From an uncultured Clostridia bacterium (GTDB lineage Bacteria; Bacillota; Clostridia; TANB77; CAG-508), in contig CAKPRA010000004.1 of the NCBI GenBank assembly GCA_934180065.1, forward strand, positions 4,786 to 68,785: 64,000 bases of DNA. Reading direction: 5' to 3'. How positions within the stretch are numbered: the first letter of the stretch is position 1; every line of letters begins with the position of its first letter. Under the pieces are notes generated by a model that saw nothing but the letters and a program-made list of their open reading frames with translations, was not told the origin of the DNA and made no database searches. The translations under genes were made by a program, and so were the position numbers. Shown here one piece after another: positions 2,008-60,350 of the stretch.

Positions 2008-2040
2008 TGTCAAAGGGTTGACAACCTTCCCCATTGACAA
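2008..2040. repeat. degenerate REP-like element (gtgtcaaagggttgacaaccttccccattgacaa)
   Basis: Shares the CCCCATTGACAA end and the GTCAA...TTGAC arrangement with the dispersed repeat family. Confidence 0.4.
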
Positions 2041-3331: not shown

Positions 3332-3504
3332 ATGAAAAAGAAAAATTTTTTAATAGTTTTATCAATGATAATGTTATCGTTGATTTTATTTGGAAGTGTA
3401 GTAGATGCTGATAAAAAACAGCCAGCTAATTTATCGATTTCTGTTAATTCAACTGCAGTAAAAAAAGGTGACGAAGTAGAACTTAGTATTAGTGGAACAA
3501 ATAT
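3332..3504 (+). pseudogene. 5' fragment of a secreted Ig-like-domain protein, truncated by a REP pair
   Basis: A signal peptide is followed by NLSISVNSTAVKKGDEVELSISG. The ORF then reads into the REP (MGTELFDSF) and stops at 3556. Confidence 0.45.
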
Positions 3505-3587
3505 GTCAATGGGGACGGAGCTTTTTGACAGCTTTGGACATTTTAAAGCTGTTTAAAAGTTGTCAAAGAGAATCGTCCCCATTGACT
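3505..3587. repeat. inverted REP pair (BIME-like hairpin)
   Basis: gtcaatggggacggagctttttgacagc ... ttgtcaaagagaatcgtccccattgac. The two halves are reverse complements. Confidence 0.85.
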
Positions 3588-3614
3588 CGCATAATATTTT
3601 TAAGGAGGAGAAAA

Positions 3615-4280
3615 ATGAAAAAAACTATTTCAATTTTAGGTATAATTTTAATATTGACAGTCAGTTTTCTTGGTTTTTCAGGCTGTGGAAGCAAAGATGA
3701 AAACAAGGAAAAAAATGAAGATCAAAATGGTACTGCAATAGCAGGTAAAAAAGAAGAATCAAAAGATCCAATAAATGATAACGATTCATATTATTTTATA
3801 TATGATGGAAAGAAATTTAAAGCAGGAGATAAAGTTTCTAGTATAGAAGAAAAAACAGAATTGGTTTTAAGAGAAAAAGAAAAAACAGAAGATGTTCCAG
3901 CTAATAAATATATGATTGGTGCAGGATATATACAAACAGCAGAAAAGAAGACTTCTTTTTATGTAACACCATATAATACAGAAAATTCAGCAGTAAAAAT
4001 TCCAGATACATACATAGGCGGTTTTGATTTAAATTCAACTAATCTAAAAAATGATAGCAAATTAGCCGATGTTGAAGTTGTTGGAGGATTAAAATTAGGA
4101 TCTTCATTTGAAGATGTAAAAAAAGTATTCGGAGAAACTGAAGATATATATGAAGGAACAAATTATGATCAATATACATATAAATCAAAAGAAGTATATA
4201 GATCTTATGTATTCAAATTCAGTAAAGATGAGAAGAAAGTTATAGAAATTACTTGGAAAAACTTAGTTTTTAATAAATAA
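3615..4280 (+). CDS. lipoprotein (lipobox LGFSGC), paralogous C-terminal domain to 2215..2925
   Basis: An RBS (aggagg) lies upstream. Signal peptide plus Cys lipobox. The GGLKLGSSFEDVKKVF motif is shared with the upstream gene. Confidence 0.7.
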   Translation: MKKTISILGIILILTVSFLGFSGCGSKDENKEKNEDQNGTAIAGKKEESKDPINDNDSYYFIYDGKKFKAGDKVSSIEEKTELVLREKEKTEDVPANKYMIGAGYIQTAEKKTSFYVTPYNTENSAVKIPDTYIGGFDLNSTNLKNDSKLADVEVVGGLKLGSSFEDVKKVFGETEDIYEGTNYDQYTYKSKEVYRSYVFKFSKDEKKVIEITWKNLVFNK

Positions 4281-4308
4281 GTCAATGGGGACGGTTCTTT
4301 TTGACAAC
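4281..4308 (+). repeat. REP-like element
   Basis: gtcaatggggacggttctttttgacaac, starting immediately after the lipoprotein stop codon. Confidence 0.85.
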
Positions 4309-4664: not shown

Positions 4665-4738
4665 TGTCAAAGAGAACCGTCCCCATTGACAAACTTGTCA
4701 AAGAGAACCGTCCCCATTGACTGCCCATTGACCGCCAT
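4665..4738 (-). repeat. two tandem REP-like elements in reverse orientation plus a CCATTGAC mini-array
   Basis: ttgtcaaagagaaccgtccccattgac occurs twice (4665-4690 and 4695-4721). It is followed by tgcccattgaccgccattg. Confidence 0.85.
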
Positions 4739-4741
4739 TGC

Positions 4742-6010
4742 CTAAATTCTGAGCAAACTAATCCATCTTTTAAATAAATAAGAACTCATATTTGCAAAAC
4801 TGTTTTTCTTTACAGTTTTATCTGAAACTATATCAACACTACATAACTGTTTTCCATCAAGAAAATAATTAATCTCTCCAATTTTTTCTCCTTTTGAGAT
4901 AGGAGCTGCTATAGTATCAGGAATATTTACTTCTTGCACTATTTTTGATTCCTGACCTTTTGGAATTAAAATGGATTTTGTATTTGAAAATGTAGCATTT
5001 ATTCTGCTCTCAACGCCCCTTTGTACAGATACAGTTTTTAATATATCATTGCTTGTTGATAATTGGCTAGATGTATAGTTTTTAAATCCATAATCTAGTA
5101 ATGTTTTTGCCTCTGAAAATCTAAGAGCTGTTGATGGAGCCTTCATTATAACAGCAATTAAATTCAAGTTATCTCTAGTAGCACTTGCAGATAAGTTATA
5201 TAATGCAAGACTTGTAGATCCTGTCTTTAAACCGGTGCAACCTTCATAATTTCTAACTAATTTATTTGTATTAACAAGTTGAGATTTTCCATCACGAATT
5301 GAATCCATCCAAATAGTGGTATAATTTTTTATTGAAGGGTGATTATTTAATAATTCTCTAGACATTATTGCAATATCATGAGCACTTGTAACATGACCAT
5401 CTTCATCAATACCATGGCAATTTTTAAAATGAGTATCATTCATTCCAAGCTCTTTAGCTCTAGCATTCATTTTTTCGACAAAATTTTCTGTACTTCCACA
5501 TAAATATTCAGCCATAGCAACAGTACAGTCATTTGCAGAAACAACACACATACATTTTAACATTTCATTAACAGAAAGATTTTCTGTTGTCGTAAGCCAA
5601 ATCTGTGAACCTCCCATAGAGCTTGCGTTTTCACTACATGGAACTTTATCATCAAGTTTGATTTTGCCAGAATCAAGCTCTTCCATAATTAGTAATATAG
5701 ACATTATTTTCGTCACACTTGCTGGGCGTAATTGCTCATGAATATTGTGCTCATATAAAATTTGACCAGAATCTTGGTCAATTAAAATAGCTGATCCAGA
5801 CTGTAAATTTAGAGGATTCTCTTTTGATGTATTATTTTCATTATTATCTGTATTTTGTGTATCTGTTTCACCTGTTGAAGTTTCTAATGTATCTTCATAA
5901 TTAGACCAAGCATATGAGTCTAAAGCCAAAGCAGTAGTATTTATGCTTGTTATAATTGATAAAATGAACAAAACAGATAATGTTTTTATAATTAAAGATT
6001 TATAGTTCAT
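4742..6010 (-). CDS. dacB: D-alanyl-D-alanine carboxypeptidase (serine-type, PBP5/6 family)
   Basis: Signal peptide. SxxK (ASVTK), SxN (SAN) and KTG motifs are present. The C-terminal domain is typical of PBP5. Confidence 0.8.
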   Translation of the reverse strand: MNYKSLIIKTLSVLFILSIITSINTTALALDSYAWSNYEDTLETSTGETDTQNTDNNENNTSKENPLNLQSGSAILIDQDSGQILYEHNIHEQLRPASVTKIMSILLIMEELDSGKIKLDDKVPCSENASSMGGSQIWLTTTENLSVNEMLKCMCVVSANDCTVAMAEYLCGSTENFVEKMNARAKELGMNDTHFKNCHGIDEDGHVTSAHDIAIMSRELLNNHPSIKNYTTIWMDSIRDGKSQLVNTNKLVRNYEGCTGLKTGSTSLALYNLSASATRDNLNLIAVIMKAPSTALRFSEAKTLLDYGFKNYTSSQLSTSNDILKTVSVQRGVESRINATFSNTKSILIPKGQESKIVQEVNIPDTIAAPISKGEKIGEINYFLDGKQLCSVDIVSDKTVKKNSFANMSSYLFKRWISLLRI

Positions 6011-6085
6011 AAAAGCCTCCGATTTTAATTAATTTATTAAAGTATATTAAAAATAAATAAAAAAATGAGTATTTACTGTTACTTT

Positions 6086-6814
6086 TTAGCCTAAGAAAAC
6101 TAATTTTATATATACTGTTTTTCCATCTGATGTAGCATAAATTTTTAGGTCTTTTGTGGAATTATTTTTAAATTTAAAATCCTTATTTCCGTGAGCAATT
6201 GCGGCATCTTTTCCTTCAGGAACATAATTTACTTTTTTACCATGAGGGTGACGCTCTGTAACTTCCAAATCAGGTACAGCAAGAACAGCATTATATAAAG
6301 TTGAACTAACTTGGCAATTTCCACCGCCAAGAGCCTGAATTACTTTCTCGCCAACAATAACATCAGCTTTTTTATATCCATCAGCTTCTGTAGATTTTCC
6401 GGTTGTTTCGCAAAAGGAGAATGTTTCACCTGCTTTTACAACAACATCATTTATTTTAGAGCATGTTAATTGAATATTATTCGCTCTATTACTTGATTTA
6501 GTTTTTATTTGTGTAGTAAATTCTGAAGCGACAGATTCTGTCTGAGCAGGTGGATTAGCAGGAGGTTGATTAACATCAGTATTATTATCTTGTGTAGGAT
6601 TATTGTTTTCATTTGTATTAGATGGATTTTCTAATGTATTTGGAGTTGAATTTTCAATAGGATTTTGATTATCTATAATGTTATTATTTGTAATTGAAGT
6701 ACTGGTTCGATTTACAGAAACATTTGAGTTTGTGTCAGGTGTTTTTTTATTTTCACACCCAGTAAAAGCCAGTAAAGTCAAAAAAACAGTAAATGTAATA
6801 CATATTTTTTTCAT
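6086..6814 (-). CDS. VanW-family lipoprotein
   Basis: Lipobox (AFTGC). The C-terminal GGGNCQVSSTLYNAV motif is the VanW domain signature. The linker is Asn/Thr-rich. Confidence 0.65.
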   Translation of the reverse strand: MKKICITFTVFLTLLAFTGCENKKTPDTNSNVSVNRTSTSITNNNIIDNQNPIENSTPNTLENPSNTNENNNPTQDNNTDVNQPPANPPAQTESVASEFTTQIKTKSSNRANNIQLTCSKINDVVVKAGETFSFCETTGKSTEADGYKKADVIVGEKVIQALGGGNCQVSSTLYNAVLAVPDLEVTERHPHGKKVNYVPEGKDAAIAHGNKDFKFKNNSTKDLKIYATSDGKTVYIKLVFLG

Positions 6815-6953
6815 AAAATTTTAATCCTTTCTTTTATAGGTATTTTTTTTATTATTTTCAATTGAGAGAAAAAATATTCAAAATTTAAAAAATGAAATTG
6901 TAATAAAAACTTAAAGATGATATTATATAAATGCAAAAGATAAGGAGGAAAAA

Positions 6954-9900
6954 ATGGCAGACGTTAAGTGGACAAATGAACAAAAAGATGCAATATTTGA
7001 CAAAGGTTCAAACATATTAGTAGCAGCAGCTGCTGGAAGTGGTAAAACTGCGGTATTAGTAGAGCGTATTATTAACAAGGTTATAAATGAAAATGTTGAT
7101 ATAGATAAAATTCTAGTAGTTACTTTTACAAATGCTGCAGCAAGTGAAATGAGAGAGCGTATACTAGAAGCTATTTATAAAAAAATGGAAGAGCTTCCTG
7201 ATAATAAAAACTTACAAAAACAAGTTATTTTAATTAATAAAGCAAGCATTTGTACAATAGATTCATTTTGCTTAGATGTTATAAGAAACAACTTTTTTGA
7301 AATAGATGTATCTGCAAATTTCAGAGTAGCAGATACAACCGAAATAGAGCTATTAAAACAAGAAGTGATTGATGATATTTTTGAGGAAAAATATATATCA
7401 AATGATAAAAAATTCTTAAAATTAATAAACACATATACAACATACAGAGATGATGAACCCCTAAAAGAGCTGTTATTGAATATTTTTCGATATATCCAAA
7501 GCAACCCATTTCCAAATCAATGGCTTCATGAAAAAATTGAAATGTTTAATTTAAATAAATCTGATGATTTTTCAAATACTTTATGGGGAAAGATTTTATT
7601 AGAAAATTTAAACCAAGAGCTTTCAGATTATGTTATAAATTTAAAGAAAATAGAGCGTGATTTAGCAAGATTTGAAGAGCTAGAAAAATACAGATTAGTA
7701 ATTAGTGAAGATATAATAAATTTAGAATATGTGCAAGAAAATCTTGGCTCATGGGACAATGCCTATGAAAAAGCTTCAAATATAAAATGGACAAATTGGC
7801 CAAAAGATTCAAAAATTACATTAGAGCTAAAAGAAACAGCAAAAAGCTTAAGAGATTCTATAAAAAATAAATACAAAAAAACTATTTCTAAAGTTTTATT
7901 ATATAATTCTAAAGAGGCTAATGAAAACATTTATAATATGTATGAAATATTAAAAGATGTAGAAACATTGGTATTAGAGTTCTCAGAGCAGTTTGCTTTA
8001 AGAAAAAAAGAAAAAAATATGGTAGATTTTAATGATATAGAGCATTTTGCGTTAAATATTTTAGTAAAAAGAAATGATGATGGAACAATTGAAGAAACCG
8101 ATATTGCTAAAAAATATAAGGAAAAATTTACCGAAATAGCAATAGATGAATATCAAGACAGTAACTATGTGCAGGAATATATATTAACAAGTGTATCTAA
8201 AGGAAATAATGTTTTCATGGTAGGGGACGTAAAACAAAGTATTTATAAATTTAGACAAGCATGTCCAGATTTGTTTTTAGAGAAATATAATAAATATAAT
8301 CTGAAAAATGAAAATATAGTTAATGGTCAAAAAATTCAATTGTTTAAGAATTTCAGAAGTAGGTCAAATATTTTAGATGTTACAAATATAATATTTGAAA
8401 ATATTATGAGCGAAAAACTTGGAGATATAAAATATGATAAAACCGAATTTTTAAATTTAGGTGCAGATTATAAAGAACCATCAGATTCTGAAATAAAAAA
8501 TTTTGCAGGGAAAACTGAGCTTCATGTAATTGATTTAAAAGAGCCGGAAATTAATGTTTTTAAAGACATTCAAGAAGATGAAGAGGAAGAAGATAATTCT
8601 AATCAAGAAAGAATAGAAGATGTTGTATTAGAAGCAAGGTTTGTTGCTAGAGAAATCAAAAAATTAATTGATAGTGACTATATGGTTTTTGATAAAAAAA
8701 CAAAAGAATATAGACACATTACATACAAAGATATAGCCCTTTTGTTAAGAGCAACATCAGTAACAGCTCCTATATATGAAAATGAAATAGCTAAATTGAA
8801 TATGCCAGTTTTTAGTGATGTATCTTCTGAATATCTTGAATCAATGGAAATTCAGACCATAATGGCAACATTAAAAATCATAGATAATCCAATGCAAGAC
8901 ATTCCACTTGTAACAGTTTTAAGGTCTGTAATTGGAGGGTTTACAGATAATGAATTAGTAAAGATTCGTTTAAAAAATAAAAAGCAATCATTTTATAAAT
9001 CACTAGAAGAATATGATGGTGATGATAATTTAAAATCAAAGATTGATGTTTTTTTACTTAGTATAAAAAAGTGGCAAGAGCAAGAAAAATACATGGCTCT
9101 TGATGAGCTTATTTGGCAAATATATATAGATACACAATTTTATAATTATGTAACATTAATGCCAAATGGAGCATTAAGACAAGCTAATTTGAAAATGCTT
9201 TTTGAAAGAGCAAAACAGTATGAAAGCGCTAGTTTTAAAGGGTTATTTAATTTTATAAGTTTTATAGATAAACTTCATACAAGCAGTGGTGACCTATCCT
9301 CTGCAAAATTAATTGGAGAAAATGAAAATGTAATTAGAATAATGAGTATTCATAAAAGTAAAGGTCTAGAATTTCCAGTTGTCTACTTATGTGGAACAGG
9401 AAAACAGTTTAATATGCAAGATTTAAATAAAAATATTTTATTACATCAAGATTTGGGAATAGGACCTAAATATATAAATAACGAGAGAAACATTGAGTAT
9501 AATACTTTGGCAAAAGAAGCCATAAAAATACAAACAAAATTAGAATCTTTATCTGAAGAAATGAGAGTATTATATGTGGCTCTAACAAGAGCAAAAGAAA
9601 AGCTTATAATAACAGGAATTTGTAAGGATGCAGATAAATCATTTAAGGAAAAGCAAGACTTAATTAGCACTTATAAAGCTGTATCAAATAACAATGAAAT
9701 AAGTGCATCAATTATAAAACAATATAAAACATATTTGGATTGGATTACATTAGTTTATTTTAATAATATAAATATTATAAAAGATTATATAGATTTAGAA
9801 ATACATAAAAAAACTGATTTAATAAAAGAATTTGAAAAAAGTAAAGAGCAAGTTCTAGAGCGTGATATTTTCAAAGAGCTTAAACAAAAATCTAAAAATG

Positions 9901-10703
9901 TAAAAAGTGAAGATATTGAACAATTGAAAGATAAAATATTGTGGTCATATAAATATGCAGACTCTGTTGAGATTCCAACTAAGACATCTGTTACAAAAAT
10001 AAAGGAGCTTTCAAATGAAGAAAATATTGTAAGTATAGAAGAGCTAGAGGAACAGAAAGAATTCAAAAAGGAAATGGCAAAACCTAAATTTTTAAATGAA
10101 GAAGAGAAACTTTCAGCAGCACAAAAAGGTACATTAATGCATTTATGTTTTCAAAGGCTTGATCATACTAGAGATTATACAAAAGCACAGATACAGGACT
10201 TTGTGCAAGATTTGGTAAATAGAAATATAATAACAAAATTAGAAGCAGATAGCATTAATATAAATAAGCTTTTTGATTATACTAATTCAAGCTTATGGAA
10301 AGAGCTTAAATTGGCTAAGAAAGTTTATAAAGAGCAACCATTTTATATTAATTTAAAATCAAAAGATATTTATAATAATAATTCAAATGAAAATATTCTA
10401 GTTCAAGGAATTATAGATTTATATTATATAAATAAAAATGATGAAATAATTTTAGTTGATTATAAAACTGATTGGATTGAAGAAGGAGAAGAGCTTAAGC
10501 TGGTTGAGAAATATGCCAAACAGCTAGAAATATATAAAAATGCATTAGAGCAAGCATTAGGTAAAAAAGTAAACAAAAAATATATTTATTCTGTGTCAAT
10601 GGGGACGGTTCTCCTTGACACGTCTTGTCAAAAAGTGTCAATAGGGACGGTTCTCCCTGACACGTCTTGTCAAAAAGAACCGTCCCCATTGACCGCCAAT
10701 TGA
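6954..10703 (+). CDS. addA: ATP-dependent helicase/nuclease subunit A (AddA/RexA-like: UvrD helicase plus C-terminal PD-(D/E)XK nuclease). The C-terminal 35 aa are encoded by REP repeats
   Basis: The Walker A motif is GSGKTAVLVERI and the UvrD motifs are present. The nuclease motif is IDLYY...VDYKTD. The tail VSMGTVLLDTSCQK... is a translated REP. Confidence 0.8.
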   Translation: MADVKWTNEQKDAIFDKGSNILVAAAAGSGKTAVLVERIINKVINENVDIDKILVVTFTNAAASEMRERILEAIYKKMEELPDNKNLQKQVILINKASICTIDSFCLDVIRNNFFEIDVSANFRVADTTEIELLKQEVIDDIFEEKYISNDKKFLKLINTYTTYRDDEPLKELLLNIFRYIQSNPFPNQWLHEKIEMFNLNKSDDFSNTLWGKILLENLNQELSDYVINLKKIERDLARFEELEKYRLVISEDIINLEYVQENLGSWDNAYEKASNIKWTNWPKDSKITLELKETAKSLRDSIKNKYKKTISKVLLYNSKEANENIYNMYEILKDVETLVLEFSEQFALRKKEKNMVDFNDIEHFALNILVKRNDDGTIEETDIAKKYKEKFTEIAIDEYQDSNYVQEYILTSVSKGNNVFMVGDVKQSIYKFRQACPDLFLEKYNKYNLKNENIVNGQKIQLFKNFRSRSNILDVTNIIFENIMSEKLGDIKYDKTEFLNLGADYKEPSDSEIKNFAGKTELHVIDLKEPEINVFKDIQEDEEEEDNSNQERIEDVVLEARFVAREIKKLIDSDYMVFDKKTKEYRHITYKDIALLLRATSVTAPIYENEIAKLNMPVFSDVSSEYLESMEIQTIMATLKIIDNPMQDIPLVTVLRSVIGGFTDNELVKIRLKNKKQSFYKSLEEYDGDDNLKSKIDVFLLSIKKWQEQEKYMALDELIWQIYIDTQFYNYVTLMPNGALRQANLKMLFERAKQYESASFKGLFNFISFIDKLHTSSGDLSSAKLIGENENVIRIMSIHKSKGLEFPVVYLCGTGKQFNMQDLNKNILLHQDLGIGPKYINNERNIEYNTLAKEAIKIQTKLESLSEEMRVLYVALTRAKEKLIITGICKDADKSFKEKQDLISTYKAVSNNNEISASIIKQYKTYLDWITLVYFNNINIIKDYIDLEIHKKTDLIKEFEKSKEQVLERDIFKELKQKSKNVKSEDIEQLKDKILWSYKYADSVEIPTKTSVTKIKELSNEENIVSIEELEEQKEFKKEMAKPKFLNEEEKLSAAQKGTLMHLCFQRLDHTRDYTKAQIQDFVQDLVNRNIITKLEADSININKLFDYTNSSLWKELKLAKKVYKEQPFYINLKSKDIYNNNSNENILVQGIIDLYYINKNDEIILVDYKTDWIEEGEELKLVEKYAKQLEIYKNALEQALGKKVNKKYIYSVSMGTVLLDTSCQKVSIGTVLPDTSCQKEPSPLTAN

Positions 10704-10730
10704 CCACCAATTGACCGGCCAGATTGACAC
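10595..10730. repeat. REP cluster: two direct copies, one inverted copy, then a CCAATTGAC array
   Basis: gtcaatggggacggttctccttgaca, then gtcaatagggacggttctccctgaca, then ttgtcaaaaagaaccgtccccattgac. These are followed by cgccaattgaccaccaattgaccggccagattgacac with a period of about 10-11 bp. Confidence 0.85.
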
Positions 10731-10746
10731 ATGAAAGGAGTTTTTT

Positions 10747-16897: not shown

Positions 16898-17073
16898 GGA
16901 AAAGGGGACGGTTCTCTTTTCCCAGATTTGGGAAATAGGGACACAGTCCAAAGCAAATGAGATACGCTTTTTTTCTGTAAAGGGAGAAATAGGGACAGTC
17001 TAGATTAAATGAAATACGCTTTTTTTGGCAAAATGGAGAAAGAAAATGGAAAAGAGAGCCGTCCCCTTTTCCC
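16898..17073. repeat. 176-bp MITE-like element whose terminal inverted repeats carry the REP core
   Basis: The left end is ggaaaaggggacggttctcttttccc and the right end is ggaaaagagagccgtccccttttccc, which is its reverse complement. An internal direct repeat reads aaatga(g/a)atacgcttttttt. Confidence 0.8.
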
Positions 17074-42696: not shown

Positions 42697-43056
42697 AAAA
42701 AATTGAGCTTCCATAAAATCAAAATTATGGTAGCTCTTTTTATATGTTAAATAAAGTAATAAGATTATAACACATAAAGAGAATAAATAATGTTCAGGAT
42801 AGTTTGATTGAATTTAGTGAAAACATATATTAAATGTTTAACTTTAACATGAGATGTATTTAAATCCGCTATATTCTACTTTTCCATTTTTAACTTGTAA
42901 AACTTATGTTTAAAATAAAAACAATGGTCAAAGCCATGCCGGTTGCTGAGATAAAAAGGTTGAAATAAATTCTGTTTTATAAATCATATCATTGATTTTG
43001 TAATCTTTTTAAGATATAATATCCGAATAAAATATAAGATACAGAAAGGGAATGAG

Positions 43057-47444: not shown

Positions 47445-48308
47445 ATGAAGAGAAAATTTATACTAATAATAAGTGTAATAATAATTCTAATTATATCTGT
47501 ATGTGTTTTATTATTAAATAAAAGCAAAGAAGTTGCAAAAAATAGTGATGAAATATATATAAACGTTGAAAATGAGTTTATGGCTGAAAATACTAATAAT
47601 GTTACAAATAATATAATATCAGAAAAAAATGAAGAAAAAACGATTAGTACTGCAAGTAATGAGCAAAAAGTAGATAAAAATGTTAATCAAAATAACGTTG
47701 ATGTAAATAAAAAAGTAGAAAAAACAGAAAATAAAAATCAAACAAGCTCAAACAGCAATATTAGTAAAGAAAATAATGCACCAACTGGTAAAACTACATA
47801 TTATATCAAGGTAAATTATGGAGCTAATGCAGTTACTATATACAAAAAAGATGAAAACGGTTATTACACAGTTCCAGTAAAGGCAATGATTTGTTCATGT
47901 GGAACTGCAACACCGAAAAGTGGTGTTTATAAAACATCTAAGGGATATGAATGGGGAACTTTAGAAGGAGGAACATATGGTAGGTATTCTACTAGAATAA
48001 AGGGTGGCATTTTATTTCACTCTGTTCCATATGTGTCAGAAAGTGAGGATTCATTAGAATATTGGGAATATGATAAATTAGGAACGACAGCATCTTTAGG
48101 TTGTGTTAGACTTGCAGTGGCTGATTCAAAATGGATATTTGATAATTGTGAAGTTGGAACTCAAGTCGAGTTTTATTCAGATACAAATCCAGGACCACTA
48201 GGAAAACCAACTGCCCAAAAAATATCTGATAATGAGAAATGTAGAAATTGGGATCCAACAGATACTTCTCCAAATAGCCCATGGGTCAATGGGGACGGTT
48301 CTCTTTGA
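47445..48308 (+). CDS. L,D-transpeptidase (YkuD domain). The last 8 codons are encoded by a REP
   Basis: HSVPY....SLGCVRL catalytic motif. The tail WVNGDGSL comes from gggtcaatggggacggttctctttga. Confidence 0.75.
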   Translation: MKRKFILIISVIIILIISVCVLLLNKSKEVAKNSDEIYINVENEFMAENTNNVTNNIISEKNEEKTISTASNEQKVDKNVNQNNVDVNKKVEKTENKNQTSSNSNISKENNAPTGKTTYYIKVNYGANAVTIYKKDENGYYTVPVKAMICSCGTATPKSGVYKTSKGYEWGTLEGGTYGRYSTRIKGGILFHSVPYVSESEDSLEYWEYDKLGTTASLGCVRLAVADSKWIFDNCEVGTQVEFYSDTNPGPLGKPTAQKISDNEKCRNWDPTDTSPNSPWVNGDGSL

Positions 48309-48311
48309 CAA
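48285..48311 (+). repeat. REP-like element
   Basis: gtcaatggggacggttctctttgacaa. Confidence 0.85.
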
Positions 48312-48574
48312 CCACAAAAAAATACAGAATTTTTCTGTATTTTTTTTGCATGAAACGGAACATAAACAGTTGACACACTGAAAGTTATTTTGGAATTATG
48401 GAAAGTAAGTAAAAGGAAAAAAATAAGGAAGAAACGGGAAAGTGTTGAAGCAATTGACAATATTGAATTGGGAAAAATTACATAATTGTACTTGACATAA
48501 TTATTGATAATATGCTATACTTTATTCAGATGTTTCGAAAGAAACATACTTTGTACTAAGGAGGTCGAAAGACC

Positions 48575-48769
48575 ATGGGAATTAACATTGACACAACCGC
48601 AGCTCGCAAAGCTGCACAGGATGCTCACGCAAAAGCTGAAAAAGCAAATCAGACTGCACAGTCTGCTATCGAAGAAGCTAATGCTATTGCAGAGCGCATT
48701 AAAGCAATTCCTCATACTAATAGTATGGAAGAGCTTGACGTAGCCCTTGCAAAGGCTATCCGTGGTTAA
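48575..48769 (+). CDS. small helical protein (64 aa) with a strong RBS and unusually high GC
   Basis: aaggaggtcgaaagaccATG. The ORF is about 45% GC in a genome of about 27%. The repeated leader motif lies upstream. Confidence 0.55.
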   Translation: MGINIDTTAARKAAQDAHAKAEKANQTAQSAIEEANAIAERIKAIPHTNSMEELDVALAKAIRG

Positions 48770-48785
48770 AATTCCCCAAAGAAAA

Positions 48786-48822
48786 AGCCGATGAAGATTT
48801 TATTTCTTTCATCGGCTTTTGT
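48786..48822 (+). terminator. rho-independent terminator
   Basis: aaagccgatgaagattttatttctttcatcggctttt. Confidence 0.7.
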
Positions 48823-48853
48823 CGTTAACTTAAATGGTAAACCAGGATTATGG

Positions 48854-48880
48854 GTCAATGGGGACGGTTCTCTTTGACAA
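48854..48880 (+). repeat. REP-like element
   Basis: gtcaatggggacggttctctttgacaa. Identical to the copy at 48285. Confidence 0.85.
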
Positions 48881-49199
48881 CAATAAAAAAACTACAGAAT
48901 TTTCCTGTATTTTTTTGTTGCATGGAACAAAACATAAACAGTTGACGCACTGAAGATTATTTCCTTATTATGGAAAGTAAATAAAAAGAAAAGATGAAGG
49001 AAGAAACAGATACGGTTCTTGCAAGTGTTTGCAAGGAACCTTAAATCACTTAATAAATAAAAGAGTTGAAGCAATTGACTTTGAGCGATTAGAAGGAAAG
49101 TGCATAAAATTACTTGACATATACACAGTAAATGGTGATAGAATTATGATATATCAAACTGAAATGGTGCAATAAAATTTTATGAGGAGAATATAAATC

Positions 49200-50279
49200 A
49201 TGGAAAGTTTAAAGGAATATAGACCTAGTATAATTAATAAACTAAAATTATTTCTAAGCAGAATTGAACAAAGAAAAACAATTGAAAAAAATTTAGATAA
49301 ATTAGATATCAGTTTATTTTCTTCCAATAATATTGATTATATAATACAAAATAAAGAAAAATTTAAAAGTACAAGTGGTATGCCAGATCCACAAAAAGAA
49401 ATTATGACTATTGAAGATAAACTTGGAATAGTAATGGACTTTTTCAATGATTTAAATTCTAGTTTAGGGAAAAAAGTTAAAGATACATATTTAAAATATA
49501 AAACGCAAATTTATTTTGATGAGTGCAGTGATAAAAATAAAGAAATTGGTGATGGTTTCACTAGCGGACATAATAGAAGTACATCCATTATGTGTGGCGA
49601 TGGTATTGAAAGACCAAATCTTATAGCAAGAATTTGTACCAATAAAAATAATGCACTAGATATATATAATATAGCTCACGAATTCACACATATATTGCTA
49701 AACGAAAATACTAAAGAAAAAAACATTAGTGCTGAAAACCAAGAAATTGCAACTAGATTTACAGAAATCTTGTTGGGCGAATATATGGAAAAAAGAAAAA
49801 TTATCACAACAGAAGACAAAGAAAATCACAACATATGTATATCAGGCGAAATAGATAAAGCATATCAGCTCAATGAATATAGAATTTTAAGAAACCTAAT
49901 TAAAAACAATGGAAATAAATTTGATAAGAAATTAGAAAAAACATGTATTTCTAAATATTGCAAAGGAAATAAAAACTGGTATTACCAAATATTATCAAAC
50001 ATAGCATATAGATTAGAAAGAACCGGCAAAGTAGACGGTTTTCAAAATTACTTAAGATTTGTTAATTCAGCAGCAGAATGTGATAAATTAAAACAAGCAT
50101 ATATTGAAAATCCCGATTTAATAAAAAAAGCTTTTTCTCAATGTTTAATGAGTCAGCATAGTATTACGTACAATGATGTAGTGAAAAAGAGGTCAATGGG
50201 GACGGTTCTTTTTGACACAAAAAACATTGACGTTTTACAGCAAGTAAAGAAAAAAGATACATACGAAATTACTCATTAA
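49200..50279 (+). CDS. hypothetical protein with an HExxH motif (putative zinc metallopeptidase). An in-frame REP insertion lies near the C-terminus
   Basis: HEFTH motif. A REP at 50192-50219 is translated as RSMGTVLFDT. Confidence 0.45.
   Translation: MESLKEYRPSIINKLKLFLSRIEQRKTIEKNLDKLDISLFSSNNIDYIIQNKEKFKSTSGMPDPQKEIMTIEDKLGIVMDFFNDLNSSLGKKVKDTYLKYKTQIYFDECSDKNKEIGDGFTSGHNRSTSIMCGDGIERPNLIARICTNKNNALDIYNIAHEFTHILLNENTKEKNISAENQEIATRFTEILLGEYMEKRKIITTEDKENHNICISGEIDKAYQLNEYRILRNLIKNNGNKFDKKLEKTCISKYCKGNKNWYYQILSNIAYRLERTGKVDGFQNYLRFVNSAAECDKLKQAYIENPDLIKKAFSQCLMSQHSITYNDVVKKRSMGTVLFDTKNIDVLQQVKKKDTYEITH
50192..50219 (+). repeat. REP-like element inside a coding sequence
   Basis: gtcaatggggacggttctttttgacaca. 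Confidence 0.85.
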
Positions 50280-50503
50280 ATTGAATTAATTTTATAAAAG
50301 ATAAAAAATAATATTCTAAGTTATGTTAACTGCAAAGATACAAGAGTTAAGGGAAAATTACTGGAATTTTTATTACAGAATTGCATTGTTTTATATAATA
50401 TAATAAGTTCAGTAGATTTTTTTCTAATTTGAAAATCTTTCTACATCATTCGATATCCACCCACTTTGATAAATCCTCTTAGTAGAGGTAGAAAGGAAAA
50501 CAG

Positions 50504-50962
50504 ATGCTTAAAGACATTCAGGAAGCAATCGAAAGTTTGGAAGCGCGCATTGAAGCAGAAGAAAAACAGATTCGGCTCATGAAAAATGATTTGAGAGCTT
50601 TAAAAGAAAGACTTCCGCAGGGAACTGAAATTACAGGCGCAAAATCATTACCAGAATCTTTGGACGAATTGTTCAGACAATTTTTTATTCAGAATGATAC
50701 TCGTGGTTTAATTAAACGAGTAGATACTGTGTTAGCTAGAAATAATATATCTATTGATGATTTATACAATATCTCATTTATGAAGCTATCCTCATTATCG
50801 TGTGCCTCTGGACATGTAGTTTTTATTATTATCGCAGTTCTTGAACACTACGGCATAGAGATTGAGATTCCAGAATATAAAAGTTCAAATAAATCAAAAA
50901 TGATTGCAAAACAGGTAAAGGAACTTTTGCCTGGTTACAGAGAAAGAATTATCTTTAAGTAA
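50504..50962 (+). CDS. hypothetical protein
   Basis: 152-aa ORF with an RBS (aggaaaacag). A terminator hairpin follows at 50968-50997. Confidence 0.4.
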   Translation: MLKDIQEAIESLEARIEAEEKQIRLMKNDLRALKERLPQGTEITGAKSLPESLDELFRQFFIQNDTRGLIKRVDTVLARNNISIDDLYNISFMKLSSLSCASGHVVFIIIAVLEHYGIEIEIPEYKSSNKSKMIAKQVKELLPGYRERIIFK

Positions 50963-50994
50963 GCAAAAAGAACCTCCCATCACTGGGGGTTTTT

Positions 50995-51033
50995 GTCAAT
51001 AGGTGTCAATAGGGGACGGTTCTTTTTGACACA
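50995..51033 (+). repeat. REP-like element (partial copy plus full copy)
   Basis: gtcaataggtgtcaataggggacggttctttttgacaca. Confidence 0.8.
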
Positions 51034-51061
51034 AAAACATTGCCATTTTTACATCAAAAAT

Positions 51062-51322
51062 AAAGAAAAAGCTAAATACATACGTAAAAATTCAACCTAA
51101 AAGCTATTGTATATCCTTCTGATTGTTTCTCTTCCTATATTTAATTCTTTTGAAATTCATGGATGAAGCACCAATTTTTTTATACCTCGCTTTCAGTTTT
51201 TTTACATAGCGCTCTGAAAAATTCAACCTGTTTGCTGCAACTTTGATAGTCATAGTTCCAGTAATACAACTTTGTATTACTGCTTTTTTTAATTCTTCTT
51301 TTTTATTCATAACAGTTCTCAT
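51062..51322 (-). pseudogene. remnant of a REP-associated tyrosine transposase copy (3' end duplicated from 52131-52230 but frameshifted), with an HTH N-terminal part
   Basis: DNA 51066-51160 is about 95% identical to 52136-52230, which is the 3' end of the RAYT gene plus downstream sequence. The reading frame differs. An HTH-like segment VAANRLNFSERYVKKLKARY is present. Confidence 0.5.
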
Positions 51323-51526
51323 ACCTCCATTATATCATAGGGTGAACTTTTCATAAGTTAATTTTATAGGGTGATCATATCATAAATTAGGTTAAATTTA
51401 AGAAATAATTGCAATTTACATAAAATTATGTTATAATATTAGTATGATTGGGAATTCACCCATGAAACACACTTTTAGTGTGGTAACATTGACAACCTTA
51501 TATACAGGTATACAGGAGGAAAAAAT

Positions 51527-52003
51527 ATGGAGTATGGAAGAATCATGCATACTTTAGAATGTGACACTTTAACACCAGAGAAACTTCTTGAAGCCATCTT
51601 AAAAATGGTAAGAGAAAGTTACTTTCTTGTAAAAAAAGCCATCGAGGCAATTCCCGATAAGGAAATAGAAAACTTCTTGAATGAAGCTTTTCTTATTTCA
51701 AGAATTAGAGTTAATTTCTTTGAAAGAAATGTGTACTTTGAGGATTGTTTTACAAAAGAGCACATTTTTTCTTTTACACCAACAGAAAAAGATTTTTTCG
51801 AAGGAAATGCGTTCATTAAGATTGAGGTACTTCCTCTTAGAAAGGCAATTGAAATATGCTACGAAGACCTTGAATTCTCAGATTCATACATCCGAGAGAT
51901 GTTCGAAAATTTGGATTTCAAAGCGTATTTCGGTAAGTATTTTATCGGAGAAAATCTGGCAACAAGCGATATAATCGTCTCTGAGGAGTTCTTTGCTAAT
52001 TAA
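51527..52003 (+). CDS. hypothetical protein
   Basis: 158-aa ORF with an RBS (caggagg). A terminator lies at about 52038-52072. Confidence 0.4.
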   Translation: MEYGRIMHTLECDTLTPEKLLEAILKMVRESYFLVKKAIEAIPDKEIENFLNEAFLISRIRVNFFERNVYFEDCFTKEHIFSFTPTEKDFFEGNAFIKIEVLPLRKAIEICYEDLEFSDSYIREMFENLDFKAYFGKYFIGENLATSDIIVSEEFFAN

Positions 52004-52077
52004 TTAAAACCTACTGTCATCTACAGAAAAAGGTTGCAAAAAAAGTCCCTCTCATTTGGGGACTTTTTTGTTGCTCT

Positions 52078-52105
52078 GTCAATGGGGACGGTTCTTTTTG
52101 ACACA
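52078..52105 (+). repeat. REP-like element flanking the 3' side of the RAYT gene
   Basis: gtcaatggggacggttctttttgacaca. Confidence 0.85.
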
Positions 52106-52168
52106 AAAACATTGCCATTCTTACATCAAGAATAAATAAAAAGCTAAATACATACGTAAAAATTCAAC

Positions 52169-52873
52169 CTAAGAGCTATTGTATAGCCTTCTAATTGTTT
52201 CTCTTCCTATATTTAATTCTTTTGAAATATTTCTTAAAGAAATATGTTTTTTATCTTTCAATAATCTTATAAGATCCGATAAAATAATTTTATTATTTTT
52301 TAATTCTGAAGTATCTATATGATATTCCTCTAAAAATTTTCTAATAAAATCTTTGCACTCAGTATTATTATTTTTATCATCATCCACATCGATAAAGACA
52401 TATTCATCATCCAAATCTTTATTATTTAAATCCTTATTGAATTTTTTATAATTTGAATAAGGATAATCTTCGGCTTTTTGGCAAATACCAGCTTTTACAG
52501 GATTATTAAAGATATAATTTATGCAATTATATAAGTGTTTCTTACTGTAGATTCCTTCAGCCTTATATCTATCTCGAAAAACATAGCCTACTCTATTGTA
52601 TTTTTTATTATAGTACATACTATATCGTATGTTAAGACGTTGCATGTATTTGCTAAGATCTTTTAAACTATTGGATTCAATTAAAATATGTGTATGATTA
52701 TTCATAATACAATAAGCAATTATATTAATTTTATGTTCAGTAAGTAAATCATACATTATTTTTATATAATACTTAATATCTTGTGTTTCATCAAAAATAT
52801 AGCTTTTATTAATTCCTTGGGTAATAATATGAAAAAAAGATGTTTGAATAAAACTTCTTGGTTGTCTTGGCAT
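52169..52873 (-). mobile_element. REP-associated tyrosine transposase (RAYT, IS200/IS605 TnpA-like Y1 HUH enzyme) with a C-terminal HTH
   Basis: HuH motif HTHILIE. Catalytic Tyr region YIFNNPVKAG. The C-terminal part LRNISKELNIGRETIRRL is an HTH. The gene is bracketed by inverted REP copies at 52078-52105 and 52985-53013. Confidence 0.75.
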
Positions 52874-52984
52874 AAAATCTCCTAAATATTGTGAAATAAA
52901 ATTATATATATAATATCATAAGAATAATAAAAAAAATGTCGAAATGTGCTTTACTACATAATTTTTTGGAATTAATAGACAAAG

Positions 52985-53013
52985 TTGTCAAAAAGTTCCG
53001 TCCCCATTGACAT
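52985..53013 (-). repeat. REP-like element (reverse orientation) flanking the 5' side of the RAYT gene. It carries the TTGACA used as the ppdK -35
   Basis: ttgtcaaaaagttccgtccccattgacat. Confidence 0.85.
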
Positions 53014-53082: not shown

Positions 53083-55707
53083 ATGAATAAAAAATATGTA
53101 TATCTTTTTAAAGAAGGTAATGCAAGTATGAAAGAGCTACTTGGCGGAAAAGGTGCCAATTTAGCTGAAATGACATCTTTAGGGATGCCAATACCTCAAG
53201 GTTTTACAATTACAACAGAGGCTTGTAACAAATATTATGATGATGATGAACAAATTTCTAAAGAAATTTTAGAGCAAATAGATTCTGCTCTTATATATTT
53301 GGAGGATCATACAGGTAAAAAGCTTGGAAGTAAAGAAAAACCTTTATTAGTATCTGTAAGATCAGGGGCTAGAGCTTCTATGCCGGGTATGATGGATACT
53401 GTTTTAAATTTAGGTATGAATGATGAAGTTGTTCAGACTTTTGCCGAGAAAAATAGAAGATTTGCTTTTGATAGTTATAGAAGATTTATACAAATGTATA
53501 GTGATGTTGTTAAGGAAATACCTAAAAAATTATTTGAAGATGCTATTGATACTAAAAAACAACAAAGAAATTTGAAATTAGATACTGATATGGATGCTAA
53601 TGACTTGGAAGATTTGGTAAAAGTATTTAAAGGGATTTATAGAGATTATCTACATGAAGAATTTCCACAAGATACTAAATTACAATTAATTGAATCTATT
53701 AAGGCTGTATTTAGATCTTGGAATAATCCAAGAGCAATCACATATAGAAAATTGAATGATATACCATCTGATTGGGGAACTGCTGTTAATATACAAGCGA
53801 TGGTATTTGGTAATATGGGAGAAGATTGTGGTACAGGTGTTGCTTTTTCTAGAAATCCAATTAATGGTAAAAAAGAGGTTTTTGGAGAATTTTTAATGAA
53901 TGCACAAGGTGAAGACGTTGTTGCTGGTATACGTACTCCTCAGTCTATTGATACTTTAAAATATATTAATAAACAAGCATATGATGAATTTGTTAAATTT
54001 GCTGATAGATTGGAAAAACATTATAAAGATATGCAAGATATGGAATTTACTATTGAGCATGGTAAATTATATATGTTACAAACAAGAAATGCTAAACGTA
54101 CAGCAGTTGCAGCTTTAAAAGTTGCTGTAGACTTAGTTTTAGAGGGAATGATTGATGAAAAAGAAGCTGTGCTAAGAGTTGAGCCAAACCAATTAGAGCA
54201 ATTGCTACACCCTAACTTTAATCAAGAAGCTCTTAAAAAGGCTAAACCTATAGCTAAAGGATTACCTGCATCTCCAGGTGCTGCTACAGGTAAAGTTGTT
54301 TTTACTGCAGATAAAGCTAAAGAGCTTAAAGAAGCGGGAGAAAAAGAGCTTGTATTGGTTAGACTTGAAACATCACCAGAAGATATTGAAGGTATGGTTG
54401 TTTGTAGTGGTGTTCTTACAGTTAGAGGTGGAATGACTTCTCATGCAGCAGTTGTTGCTCGTGGTATGGGAACTTGTTGTGTTGCTGGCTGTGGAGAGCT
54501 TATTGTTAATGAGGATGAAAAGGTATTTTATACTAAAGATGGTAAAGCATTCCACGAAGGTGATTATATTTCTTTAGATGGATCTAATGGTAATGTTTAT
54601 GGAGAAAGAATTGATACTGTAGATGCATCTATTTCAGGTGATTTTGCAACTCTAATGGGTTGGGCTGATAGTATAAGAAAATTGAAAGTTAGAGCTAATG
54701 CTGATAATGTTAGAGATGCTCAAAAAGCCTATAATTTTGGAGCTGAAGGTATAGGATTATGCAGAACAGAACACATGTTCTTTGAGCCAGATAGAATTGC
54801 AGCTATTAGAGAAATGATAGTATCTAAAACACATGAACAAAGAGCTTGTGCACTTTCAAAAATACTTCCTATGCAAAGAGCTGACTTTGAAGGTTTATAT
54901 AGATCTATGAGAGGATATCCAGTTGTAATAAGATTATTGGATCCACCTCTTCATGAGTTTTTACCACATGATGATGAGGAAATTAAAGCTTTATCACAAG
55001 ATATGGGATTAAGTTTTGATGAACTTAAAGATATTGTAACTGACTTACATGAGTTTAATCCTATGATGGGTCATAGAGGTTGTAGACTTGATGTAACATT
55101 CCCTGAAATCGCTGAAATGCAAACAAGAGCTATTATAGAAGCAGCTATTAATGTATATAAAGAAGGAGTAAAAATTGTTCCAGAAATAATGATTCCTTTA
55201 ATAGGTGATGAAAAAGAGCTTAAATTTGTTAAAAATATTATAGTAAAAACCGCTGACGAAATCATTGAGAAATCTAATATTGATTTGAAGTATCAAGTAG
55301 GAACAATGATTGAAATACCTAGAGCTTGTTTAATAGCAGATGAAATTGCAAAAGAAGCGGAATTCTTCTCTTTTGGTACAAATGATTTAACACAGTTAAC
55401 TTATGGATTTAGCCGTGATGATGCTGGAAAATTCTTAAAAACTTATTATGAGAAAAAGATTTTTGAAAGTGATCCATTCCAAAAAGTTGATCAAATTGGG
55501 GTTGGTAAACTTATGAAAATGGCAATAGAAGATGCTAAAAAAGTTAGACCTAATATAGAGCTTGGAATATGTGGAGAGCATGGAGGAAATCCACCAACTG
55601 TAGAATTTTGTCATAATATAGGATTAACATATGTATCATGTTCACCTTTCCGTGTGCCAATAGCACGTTTGGCAGCAGCACAAGCAGCAGTTAAATTTGA
55701 AAAATAA
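53083..55707 (+). CDS. ppdK: pyruvate, phosphate dikinase
   Basis: 874 aa. The phosphohistidine region GGMTSHAAVVARG and the PEP-utilising domains are present. Confidence 0.95.
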   Translation: MNKKYVYLFKEGNASMKELLGGKGANLAEMTSLGMPIPQGFTITTEACNKYYDDDEQISKEILEQIDSALIYLEDHTGKKLGSKEKPLLVSVRSGARASMPGMMDTVLNLGMNDEVVQTFAEKNRRFAFDSYRRFIQMYSDVVKEIPKKLFEDAIDTKKQQRNLKLDTDMDANDLEDLVKVFKGIYRDYLHEEFPQDTKLQLIESIKAVFRSWNNPRAITYRKLNDIPSDWGTAVNIQAMVFGNMGEDCGTGVAFSRNPINGKKEVFGEFLMNAQGEDVVAGIRTPQSIDTLKYINKQAYDEFVKFADRLEKHYKDMQDMEFTIEHGKLYMLQTRNAKRTAVAALKVAVDLVLEGMIDEKEAVLRVEPNQLEQLLHPNFNQEALKKAKPIAKGLPASPGAATGKVVFTADKAKELKEAGEKELVLVRLETSPEDIEGMVVCSGVLTVRGGMTSHAAVVARGMGTCCVAGCGELIVNEDEKVFYTKDGKAFHEGDYISLDGSNGNVYGERIDTVDASISGDFATLMGWADSIRKLKVRANADNVRDAQKAYNFGAEGIGLCRTEHMFFEPDRIAAIREMIVSKTHEQRACALSKILPMQRADFEGLYRSMRGYPVVIRLLDPPLHEFLPHDDEEIKALSQDMGLSFDELKDIVTDLHEFNPMMGHRGCRLDVTFPEIAEMQTRAIIEAAINVYKEGVKIVPEIMIPLIGDEKELKFVKNIIVKTADEIIEKSNIDLKYQVGTMIEIPRACLIADEIAKEAEFFSFGTNDLTQLTYGFSRDDAGKFLKTYYEKKIFESDPFQKVDQIGVGKLMKMAIEDAKKVRPNIELGICGEHGGNPPTVEFCHNIGLTYVSCSPFRVPIARLAAAQAAVKFEK

Positions 55708-55710
55708 GGG

Positions 55711-60319: not shown

Positions 60320-60350
60320 TAAACTAAAGACGTAATTGGAGGAACAGAAT

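Follow-up and report, generated by a model that had tools for sequence, protein, structure and literature searches.

Open reading frames (ORFs) decorated by repetitive extragenic palindromic (REP) elements, with protein segments encoded by the repeat, were catalogued by Di Nocera, De Gregorio and Rocco (2013; PMC3733652). In that survey, intragenic and ORF-terminal REPs are frequent in replication and repair genes (recB, uvrA/B/D-type helicases, dnaE), single REPs or dimers encode 20–30 amino acids (aa) or more, and ORF ends hold slightly over 10% of the intragenic copies. The survey makes no mention of Clostridia or Firmicutes; elsewhere, Group 1 REP-associated tyrosine transposases (RAYTs) were noted as 'also found in the Clostridia' (PMC5581495). 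Here we describe a REP family in DNA of an uncultured Clostridia bacterium (contig CAKPRA010000004.1, positions 4,786–68,785). The whole stretch of 64,000 nucleotides (nt) is hereafter called the window. In it, four ORFs run into REP copies: the repair enzyme AddA, a YkuD L,D-transpeptidase, an HExxH protein and a truncated cohesin-like secreted protein. In all four, native 3' codons are missing and REP-derived codons stand in their place, and the resulting tails (MGTVLFD and variants) are probably tolerated by-products of REP dynamics.

The family resembles described REP/REPIN-RAYT systems in its high-copy palindromes, which occur as singles and inverted dimers (REPINs) mainly 3' of unidirectional or convergent ORFs, in its REP-flanked tyrosine transposase gene and in the minority of copies that lie in ORFs or at ORF ends (PMC3733652). 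Unlike the internal in-frame REP inserts of the same survey, the window cases replace the end of the ORF, and native codons are lost. Proteins with segments encoded by REPs, often the products of DNA-repair genes, have been described before, and no new mechanism is presented here. New are the clostridial host, the lack of a terminal tag, the terminal replacement and a REP core kept over unusually many families.

Rickettsia palindromic elements (RPEs), attributed to Ogata et al. (2000), are reportedly the classic in-frame palindromic inserts in proteins. RPE-1, -4 and -6 are also mentioned by Di Nocera et al. (PMC3733652). Like RPEs, the repeats studied here are mobile palindromes that are presumably translated, and tolerated, within otherwise conserved proteins. 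Native sequence resumes after an RPE, whereas the window ORFs lose the native C-terminus and end in or after the REP. The frame and compatibility pattern of RPEs has been argued to be selected, whereas the window family is without frame bias.

The G + C content of the window is 27% and the repeat is G + C-rich, which leaves two of three REP frames open in each orientation. Read forward, the REP encodes SMGTVLFD (frame f1) or QWGRFSLT (f2), both open, or VNGDGSL (f3), which stops at a TGA. The reverse frames encode CQREPSPLT (r1) and SKRTVPID (r3), both open, and VKENRPH (r2), which stops at a TGA. The features concerned are the following.

3332–3556, plus strand: 74-aa ORF, truncated N-terminus of a cohesin-like secreted protein, REP-doublet-derived from about residue 58
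3505–3586, both strands: REP doublet with a degenerate forward copy (3505–3530) and a reverse copy (3561–3586)
6954–10703, plus strand: AddA ORF, 1249 aa, native to V1214 (nt 10595), residues 1215–1249 encoded by the REP cluster
10595–10620, plus strand: REP copy 1 in the AddA tail, frame f1, read as SMGTVLLD
10637–10662, plus strand: REP copy 2 in the AddA tail, within a 42-bp tandem duplication (10593–10634/10635–10676)
10668–10693, minus strand: inverted REP partner in the AddA tail, forming a REPIN-like doublet, read as CQKEPSPLT
10694–10735, plus strand: ATTGACC(N)CCA repeats from the REP end, containing the AddA stop, with indels between strains
47445–48308, plus strand: YkuD L,D-transpeptidase ORF (PF03734), last 7 codons and TGA stop REP-derived
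48285–48310, plus strand: REP copy over the YkuD end, frame f3 (VNGDGSL-stop), followed by a terminator-like hairpin
49200–50279, plus strand: HExxH ORF, 359 aa, from residue 331 consisting of 10 REP-encoded aa and 19 aa of translated spacer
50192–50217, plus strand: REP copy within the HExxH ORF, frame f1
51006–51031, plus strand: REP copy with a duplicated RAYT flank
52078–52103, plus strand: REP on the 3' side of the RAYT gene, facing inward
52169–52873, minus strand: RAYT gene, 234 aa, matching PF01797 and NF047646, motifs H60-T-H62 and RDRY103
52986–53011, minus strand: REP on the 5' side of the RAYT gene, inverted relative to the copy at 52078

The 1249-aa ORF was identified as AddA by TIGR02785 (addA_Gpos; 1151.5 bits, cut-off 707.65, residues 5–1219); it features PDDEXK_1 and UvrD_C domains and matches AddA of B. 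subtilis (3U44_A). It ends ...KKYIYSV/SMGTVLLDTSCQKVSIGTVLPDTSCQKEPSPLTAN-stop, with the tail at nt 10596–10700, the stop at 10701–10703 and the junction peptide YIYSVSMGTVLLDTSCQK. When the C-termini of the 60 best AddA homologues (at most 65–70% identical) were aligned, all were found to stop 8–10 residues past YIYS(V), for example with ...YIYSVRLNKMIEC-stop or ...YIYSVYLEKLIEI-stop, and the B. subtilis protein (PDB 3U44) ends 8 residues past the equivalent position (...LYFFDGGHILTL). Similarity of the window protein to its homologues stops at V1214, and the REP begins inside the codon of this residue. At the DNA level, sister species L157 reads ...TATTCTGT/TAGATTAAATAAGATGATTGAGTGTTAA and the window ...TATTCTGT/GTCAATGGGG. 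About 8 residues were lost and 35 gained. The lost codons were not found 3' of the REP cluster, which is followed only by REP-end repeats (ATTGACCNCCA) and by the ribosome-binding site of the gene after it.

A REP doublet occupies the same AddA junction in 10 of 10 conspecific loci and in all 15 inspected sequences of a 90%-identity cluster. The tail occurs in six variants of 21, 23 or 35 aa, including an L/P polymorphism. Two or three REPs are found at the AddA end depending on the strain, and the 42-bp REP duplication is restricted to the window, L003 and L005. Comparison of 11 strains yielded 76 sites with single-nucleotide polymorphisms (SNPs) in the last 2848 nt of the AddA body (55 synonymous, 21 non-synonymous) and no indels, and 6 SNP sites with at least three indel events in the 152-nt tail/REP segment. 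Since the SNPs of the body are mostly synonymous and unaccompanied by indels, in contrast to the indel-rich tail, the sequence variation indicates that the body is under purifying selection and that the tail is structurally unconstrained.

For the C-terminal domain of AddA, AlphaFold2 gave a model with a mean predicted local distance difference test score (pLDDT) of 79. REP-encoded TVLL (T218–L221) is predicted to pair, as a short strand, with the native strand before it, and the block that holds it has a mean pLDDT of ~92; residues 225–244 score below 50 and most of the tail is predicted to be disordered. Both the addA hidden Markov model (to residue 1219) and the B. subtilis alignment extend into REP-encoded SMGT(V). 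The model, which leans on the native-tail alignment, suggests that the first REP-encoded residues can replace the lost x-L-x-K-x-I-E-x strand. Such a substitution of SMGTVL for the missing terminal beta-strand would help to explain why the AddA junction is tolerated.

Another junction was observed in sister species L158 (AddA 65% identical; L158:2275–2491), in which a REP-like element overlaps the AddA stop (...YLNKTLI/LGTEQKI-stop) and an array of degenerate REP copies follows it (GTCAATGGGGTCGG, GTCAATGGGGCTGGGGCATTTGGGGAC and others). L157, another relative, features no REP at the AddA end. As the junction in L158 differs from that in the window, the addA–S4 spacer is a recurrent REP landing site.

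The YkuD protein ends ...NSPW/VNGDGSL-stop, using the frame with the in-REP TGA. More than 100 orthologues with 83–97% identity end ...SPWNK-stop, or with NN, NEQ, NGQ and similar residues instead. REP-free orthologues read CCATGG/AATAAGTAA at the DNA level and the window reads CCATGG/GTCAATGGGGACGGTTCTCTTTGA, which corresponds to seven REP codons plus a TGA supplied by the REP in place of the last two native codons and the stop. The junction is identical in 8 of 8 other complete conspecific loci. The ninth (L015) has an N-filled assembly gap at this position, which makes a false 306-aa YkuD.

In the HExxH ORF, RSMGTVLFDT is encoded at 50190–50219 and followed by 19 codons. The REP allele (window, L014, L017, L018, L021) reads ...YNDVVKK-R-SMGTVLFDT-KNIDVLQQVKKKDTYEITH-stop. 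In the REP-free allele (L013, L019, L020) the protein reads ...YNDVVKK-MDIIKYEDRAKLNIARTNSSKGRDKIEEQDIIR-stop (ending ...VVKKMDIIKYEDRAKL...DIIR-stop), with a REP 3 nt past the stop. A paralogous cassette protein in L016 has a like ending, ...I(S/T)Y(K/N)D...(I/L)I(Q/K)KYE(E/D), which is why the REP-free ending is regarded as native coding sequence; 33 residues were lost and 29 gained. The DNA encoding the 19 post-REP residues is homologous to the non-coding spacer between REP and RAYT 3' end. At the breakpoint, the three HExxH haplotypes have only the REP in common. The unit of a REP with ~70 nt of RAYT flank is present three times (50192–50290, 51006–51156 and 52078–52228). The copies at 51012 and 52084 are 96% identical over 145 nt, including the last ~50–60 nt of an ORF; the RAYT gene and a 72-aa helix-turn-helix (HTH) ORF at 51104–51322 (minus strand) therefore have a 3' end in common.

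The 74-aa ORF ends ...SGTNM/SMGTELFDSFGHFKAV-stop. Conspecific contig L156 matches the window with 98% identity along 606 nt, and the identity ends at nt 3504, just before the REP doublet. In L156 the ORF goes on as a cohesin-like domain (...SGKNIQSNDIYAISGILEYDKNVLEII...; weak match to PF00963), and the REP-free allele reads ...SGKNIQSNDIYAISG.... The alignment with L156 identifies this case as a gene truncation and not as a rewritten functional protein.

Taken together, the native 3' codons absent from the four genes number about 8 (AddA), 2 (YkuD), 33 (HExxH protein) and more than 100 (cohesin-like ORF). In none of them does native sequence resume after the REP; what follows is a REP partner, REP-end repeats or RAYT-flank spacer. 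Simple insertion was rejected, as the displaced native codons were found downstream of the REP in none of the four cases. The original prediction had read the four C-termini as rewritten by REP insertion. All four ORFs do run into REP copies as it stated, homology ends at the REP edge in each, and none of the REP-free orthologues carries the REP-encoded residues, but the events are replacements and the fourth is a truncation. Its coordinates required correction at two points, since the HExxH segment starts at 50190 instead of 50192 and the 74-aa ORF continues for 6 residues past 'DSF'. It was right that three of the four ORFs share one REP frame (S-M-G-T-V/E-L-F/L-D); YkuD uses another. The question of fixation, also raised there, has a divided answer: the AddA and YkuD junctions are present in all complete conspecific loci sampled, whereas the HExxH and cohesin-like cases are polymorphic.

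The REP consensus is G(T/A)GTCAATGGGGACGGTTCT(C/T)TTTGAC(A/T)C, a hairpin repeat of 26–30 nt (GTGTCAA-T-GGGGA-CGGT-TCTCY-TTGACAC). The 19-mer GGGACGGTTCTCYTGACA with up to three mismatches has 14 matches in the window, compared to none in 100 dinucleotide-preserving shuffles. A scan with a 13-nt core yielded 19 convincing copies on both strands of the window, and a repeat search sorted the copies into singles and inverted doublets (REPINs; 3505–3586, 10595–10693 and 55789–55855). Doublets ~25–30 nt apart are also found in many other genomes. The single REP GUGUCAAUGGGGACGGUUCUCCUUGACAC forms a 12-bp stem closed by a tetraloop (GUGUCAA.GGGGA-CGGU-UCUCC.UUGACAC) at −15.8 kcal/mol (z −4.4), and 0 of 200 shuffles were as stable. 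Among 227 distinct copies, the 12-nt inner core GGGGACGGTTCT is nearly invariant and the outer stem covaries, with positions 2/28 being T-A in 75 copies and A-T in 65. There are also variants of the whole stem (GTGTTTTT...GAAAAACAC and GGAAACAA...TGTTTCC). In contrast to the GTAG/CGTC REP superfamilies (Di Nocera et al. 2013), the consensus G(T/A)GTCAATGGGGACGGTTCTNTTTGAC(A/T)C has no terminal GTAG or CGTC; the sole CGTC is central and on the reverse strand (AACCGTCCCC). None of the Rfam families, all searched at gathering scores, overlaps any REP in the window, and a full-text literature search with the REP core on both strands returned irrelevant primer matches only.

The RAYT, which is single-copy in the window, matches Y1_Tnp (PF01797) with an E-value of 9e-12 (45.6 bits, cut-off 23) and the REP-associated tyrosine transposase model NF047646 with 4.8e-22 (78.4 bits, model positions 4–146 of 146). 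The latter score misses the curated cut-off of 80 bits by 1.6 bits, which makes the protein a close relative but not a certified equivalog. It shares with TnpA of IS200/IS605 the Y1_Tnp signature, an HUH-like motif (H60-T-H62), a candidate catalytic tyrosine (in RDRY103) and the association with DNA hairpins. It is distinguishable from IS200 by a poor equivalog match (17.9 bits against a cut-off of 55), and from IS200/IS605 by its single copy, by flanking REPs in place of insertion sequence (IS) ends and by an extra C-terminal HTH-like region (weak match to PF08279). A short palindrome with a hairpin, dispersed copies near gene 3' ends, inverted doublets and a REP-flanked RAYT are all present. 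Because the copy number is above chance, the hairpin forms with covarying stems, the RAYT matches its family and the flanking REPs face inward, the sequence evidence identifies the repeat as a true REP/REPIN-RAYT system and the RAYT as a Y1 HUH transposase homologue. The label 'REP', which had been given to the repeat from its sequence, is thereby borne out.

REP families are usually lineage-specific. Unlike these, the window REP has a 12-nt core that is invariant across families and across genomes with a G + C content of 25–67%. The exact REP 18-mer was found in more than 118 stretches of species-representative genomes, with hosts among Lachnospiraceae (including Butyrivibrio), Oscillospiraceae, Clostridiaceae, Clostridium sp. 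CAG:492, Eubacterium, Syntrophomonas and Gudongella. A homologue of the window RAYT with ~30% identity is present in 5 of 118 REP loci, from five other species. REPs lie on both sides of it in four (L061, L103, L105, L117); the fifth, L052, is cut by the locus edge and shows one flanking REP. The REP core is thus kept across families although the RAYT proteins are only ~30% identical. Copy number and position of the REPs are polymorphic between strains and species.

Stops of co-directional ORFs cluster 0–40 nt upstream of REPs and grade continuously into overlap, so that ORF–REP overlap is the extreme of the normal position of REPs behind genes. In a low-G + C sample of 208 copies, an ORF end overlaps ~4%, and another 7% lie at most 10 nt from a stop. 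The chance that at least three of four ORFs share some common frame is 27/81, or 0.33. The first frame census covered 292 REP copies from the window and 118 genome loci and counted ORFs that were open for 120 codons or more before the REP; it yielded f1 13, f2 16, f3 17, r1 3, r2 14 and r3 8. The second, with 246 copies from an independent metagenome sample of mostly 25–30% G + C genomes of the same clade, yielded f1 1, f2 2, f3 6, r2 1 and r3 2. Neither is biased and, with the chance probability of 0.33, the three shared frames were rejected as significant.

A mechanism can be proposed from these comparisons. The single-copy RAYT would serve the REP/REPIN family, whose copies, as in other REP systems, settle right behind the stops of co-directional genes. 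A minority of junctions fall within the coding sequence, a few codons short of its end; there the gene loses its own stop and final codons, probably through REP insertion accompanied by a deletion next to it or through recombination of one REP copy with another. We infer this route because the HExxH haplotypes share only the REP at the breakpoint and because the unit of REP and RAYT flank occurs three times. Translation would then enter the REP and add 7–35 arbitrary residues, with tails presumed to be translated and neutral. Purifying selection would act as a filter, permitting small losses in conserved genes (AddA ~8 aa, YkuD 2 aa) and large losses only in strain-variable or decaying genes (HExxH protein, cohesin-like fragment). 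We estimate a probability of about 80% that the MGTVLFD tails are tolerated by-products of REP dynamics filtered in this way, and not a donated functional module. The 'tolerated neutral' alternative offered by the original prediction is in line with the lack of frame bias, the variable AddA tail and the spacer-derived part of the HExxH tail.

Some observations speak against this interpretation. When sister species L158 is added to the window, frame f1 is used in four of five read-through cases (P ~0.05 if f1 is pre-specified, ~0.14 for any frame), so that a weak clade-specific preference for f1 is conceivable. ORF ends overlap 4–5 of 16 window REP copies, compared to ~4% in the 208-copy clade sample, and selection of the cases by the original prediction is the only explanation offered for this excess. 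That the AddA junction is present in all sampled strains would fit a benefit as well as neutrality. Finally, both censuses used stop-to-stop ORFs and not gene calls, and are noisy in high-G + C loci.

It is conceivable, but unlikely, that the overlap is selected at the RNA level, with the hairpin at the stop serving as mRNA 3' stabiliser, as gene barrier or, through ribosome stalling and rescue, as attenuator of termination, and the tail being incidental. The predicted doublet structures are indeed very stable, with −53.5 kcal/mol at the AddA end, −47.8 kcal/mol (z −8.8) at 3498–3592 and −85.3 kcal/mol at 55775–55870, 3' of ppdK; z-scores range from −6.9 to −15. REPs hug the stops of co-directional genes, and the AddA junction is found in every strain sampled. 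Most copies also have GT at inner-stem positions 9/22, 10/21 and 11/20, and such G-U pairs favour RNA over DNA pairing (a like argument is made in PMC3733652). The varying number of REPs at the AddA end in turn argues against fine tuning, and the separate terminator-like hairpin behind the YkuD REP indicates that the REP is not needed for termination. Moreover, most REPs in the clade lie 10–160 nt from a stop and not on it. REPs of E. coli within ~15 nt of stops reportedly lower translation via ribosome stalling and trans-translation (a finding attributed to Liang, Rudd and Deutscher, 2015). The window family shares the closeness of hairpin and stop (0 nt at 4281, 3 nt in the HExxH allele of L013, AddA stop just past the doublet), whereas the E. 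coli REPs come after the stop and the window ORFs read through the REP. A role of the hairpins at the RNA level would be compatible with tails that are by-products.

In a broader alternative, the REP/RAYT system would be a widely transferred engine, powered by the RAYT, for exchanging or trimming cassettes and the 3' ends of clostridial genes, with the strand-like f1 peptide making the trimming tolerable in essential proteins such as AddA. It is suggested by the REPs on both sides of every rearrangement junction examined and by a core that is invariant over 25–67% G + C while the RAYTs are ~30% identical. The rearrangement junctions that bear REPs are those of the three HExxH haplotypes, the cohesin truncation and the triplicated unit of REP and RAYT flank. 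We consider this reading improbable.

Very improbable is the donation of a functional peptide, in which the MGTVLFD tail would act as a localisation, degradation or interaction tag, the 'recurrent peptide-tag module' of the original prediction. Frame f1 in three of the four window cases and in AddA of L158 would fit such a tag, as would the predicted ordered strand formed by the first REP-encoded AddA residues. Both wider censuses, however, are without frame bias, and YkuD is read in a different frame. The hosts are unrelated in location and function: one is a repair helicase of the cytoplasm, one a secreted transpeptidase, one an island protein and one a truncated fragment. Length and sequence of the AddA tail vary by strain, most of it is predicted to be disordered, the HExxH tail beyond the REP is spacer-derived, and what follows the REP differs in every case. 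Neither a consistent frame nor a conserved tail was thus found, and the proposal is not upheld. In-ORF REPs have the same near-invariant core as extragenic ones, which is consistent with constraint at the DNA level. The 35-aa AddA tail, a short query of low power, had four matches among 1.8 billion representative proteins and no family; the two matches inspected are unrelated repeat-derived or repetitive proteins. Artefacts of assembly or annotation, such as repeat misassembly or frameshift errors, can practically be dismissed: repeats do break assemblies, as the false YkuD of L015 demonstrates, but the same junctions recur base for base in 9–26 independent metagenome assemblies from various studies and assemblers.

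Allele-level comparators thus show a REP family that reshapes protein ends in an uncultured human-gut Clostridia species related to Clostridium sp. CAG:492, with REPs marking breakpoints of strain-level variation in gene content. AddA is the functional counterpart of RecB. This core repair enzyme has a REP-encoded C-terminus of strain-variable length in every sampled strain, and the association of REPs with repair-gene ORFs, known from Proteobacteria, is extended to Clostridia. In gene predictions from these genomes, tails and N-terminal extensions derived from REPs are not to be taken for conserved motifs. With its broadly conserved core, the family could serve well as a model of RAYT–REP recognition.

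The host is an uncultured human-gut bacterium, and identical proteins are encoded by dozens of contigs from gut metagenomes, Hadza samples among them. Of the named genomes fetched, that of Clostridium sp. CAG:492 is nearest, with ~80–83% nucleotide identity and synteny over 55977–62144. A look-up with the 460-aa glycyl-tRNA synthetase (GlyRS) returned only the window's own strain. Further REP copies in the window are listed below.

2013–2038, minus strand: degenerate REP copy downstream of the PNP_UDP_1 gene
4281–4306, plus strand: REP copy starting right after the TAA stop of the lipoprotein gene 3612–4280 (0 nt)
4665–4721, minus strand: two tandem REP copies with partial repeats, abutting the stop of the D-Ala-D-Ala carboxypeptidase gene (4742–6010, minus strand)
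16898–17072, both strands: pair of stem-variant REPs (GGAAAA...TTTTCC) between convergent genes
48854–48879, plus strand: REP copy between island cassettes
55789–55855, both strands: perfect REP doublet with 42-nt arms, GGAAAA stem variant, between ppdK and asd

The region 48283–52900, 3' of glyS-ykuD, is a strain-variable cassette island (L012–L021) whose gene content differs by strain. In L016 it holds a 262-aa RNA_pol_A_CTD-like protein, in L013 and L019 UPF0236 transposase fragments and a frameshifted HExxH gene; in L020 it contains no RAYT and runs directly into ppdK. Between the cassettes lies a unit of ~150 nt (48283–48435, 48852–49007) composed of a REP, a terminator-like hairpin and the stretch 'AACATAAACAGTTGACAC...TTATGGAAAGTAAGTAAAAGG'. 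Partial copies of this stretch without a REP are located at 61443–61489 and 62148–62194, and it may be a promoter or leader. YkuD orthologues with 90–97% protein identity occur in differing neighbourhoods (L150, L151, L153–L155), next to ABC transporters and ftsZ or to mnmA and DUF6512, and the ykuD gene itself may be mobile or island-borne.

Tandem repeats of ~11 nt from the REP end (ATTGACC-N-CCA) follow reverse-oriented REPs at 10694–10735 and 4716–4741. They gain and lose units between strains and may have been left behind by REPs that repeatedly inserted or excised. The REP pair at 16898–17072 brackets two tandem 52-nt repeats (16930–17033), which hold a second G + C-rich motif, TAGGGACA(C)AGTC. 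The addB gene is not next to addA and must be elsewhere or absent; upstream (4742–6954) are a VanW-like gene and the opposite-strand D-Ala-D-Ala carboxypeptidase gene.

In the mechanical ORF listing, the lipoprotein gene (true start ~3612) is extended upstream through a REP (3492–3611), which adds a spurious N-terminal 'QWGRSFLT...'. In the same way, asd (true start ~56020, MNKYRVALVG) gains a spurious 'GKRREKGTVLIDN...' (55697–56020). Gene callers may make the same error at both genes. An exact look-up of the lipoprotein (3612–4277) found no record, probably because of a different called start. The REP-borne TTGACA was considered as −35 box of ppdK and rejected, since the spacer to TATAAT is 19 nt, the pair was not in the consensus scan and an extended −10 (TGnTATAAT) is present anyway.

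The only Rfam family in the window is CRISPR-DR3 at 42836–42865 (minus strand; 44.7 bits, gathering score 41), where a CRISPR array is probably located. Two tandem copies of a 156-nt unit, 93% identical to each other, are present at 62291–62602.

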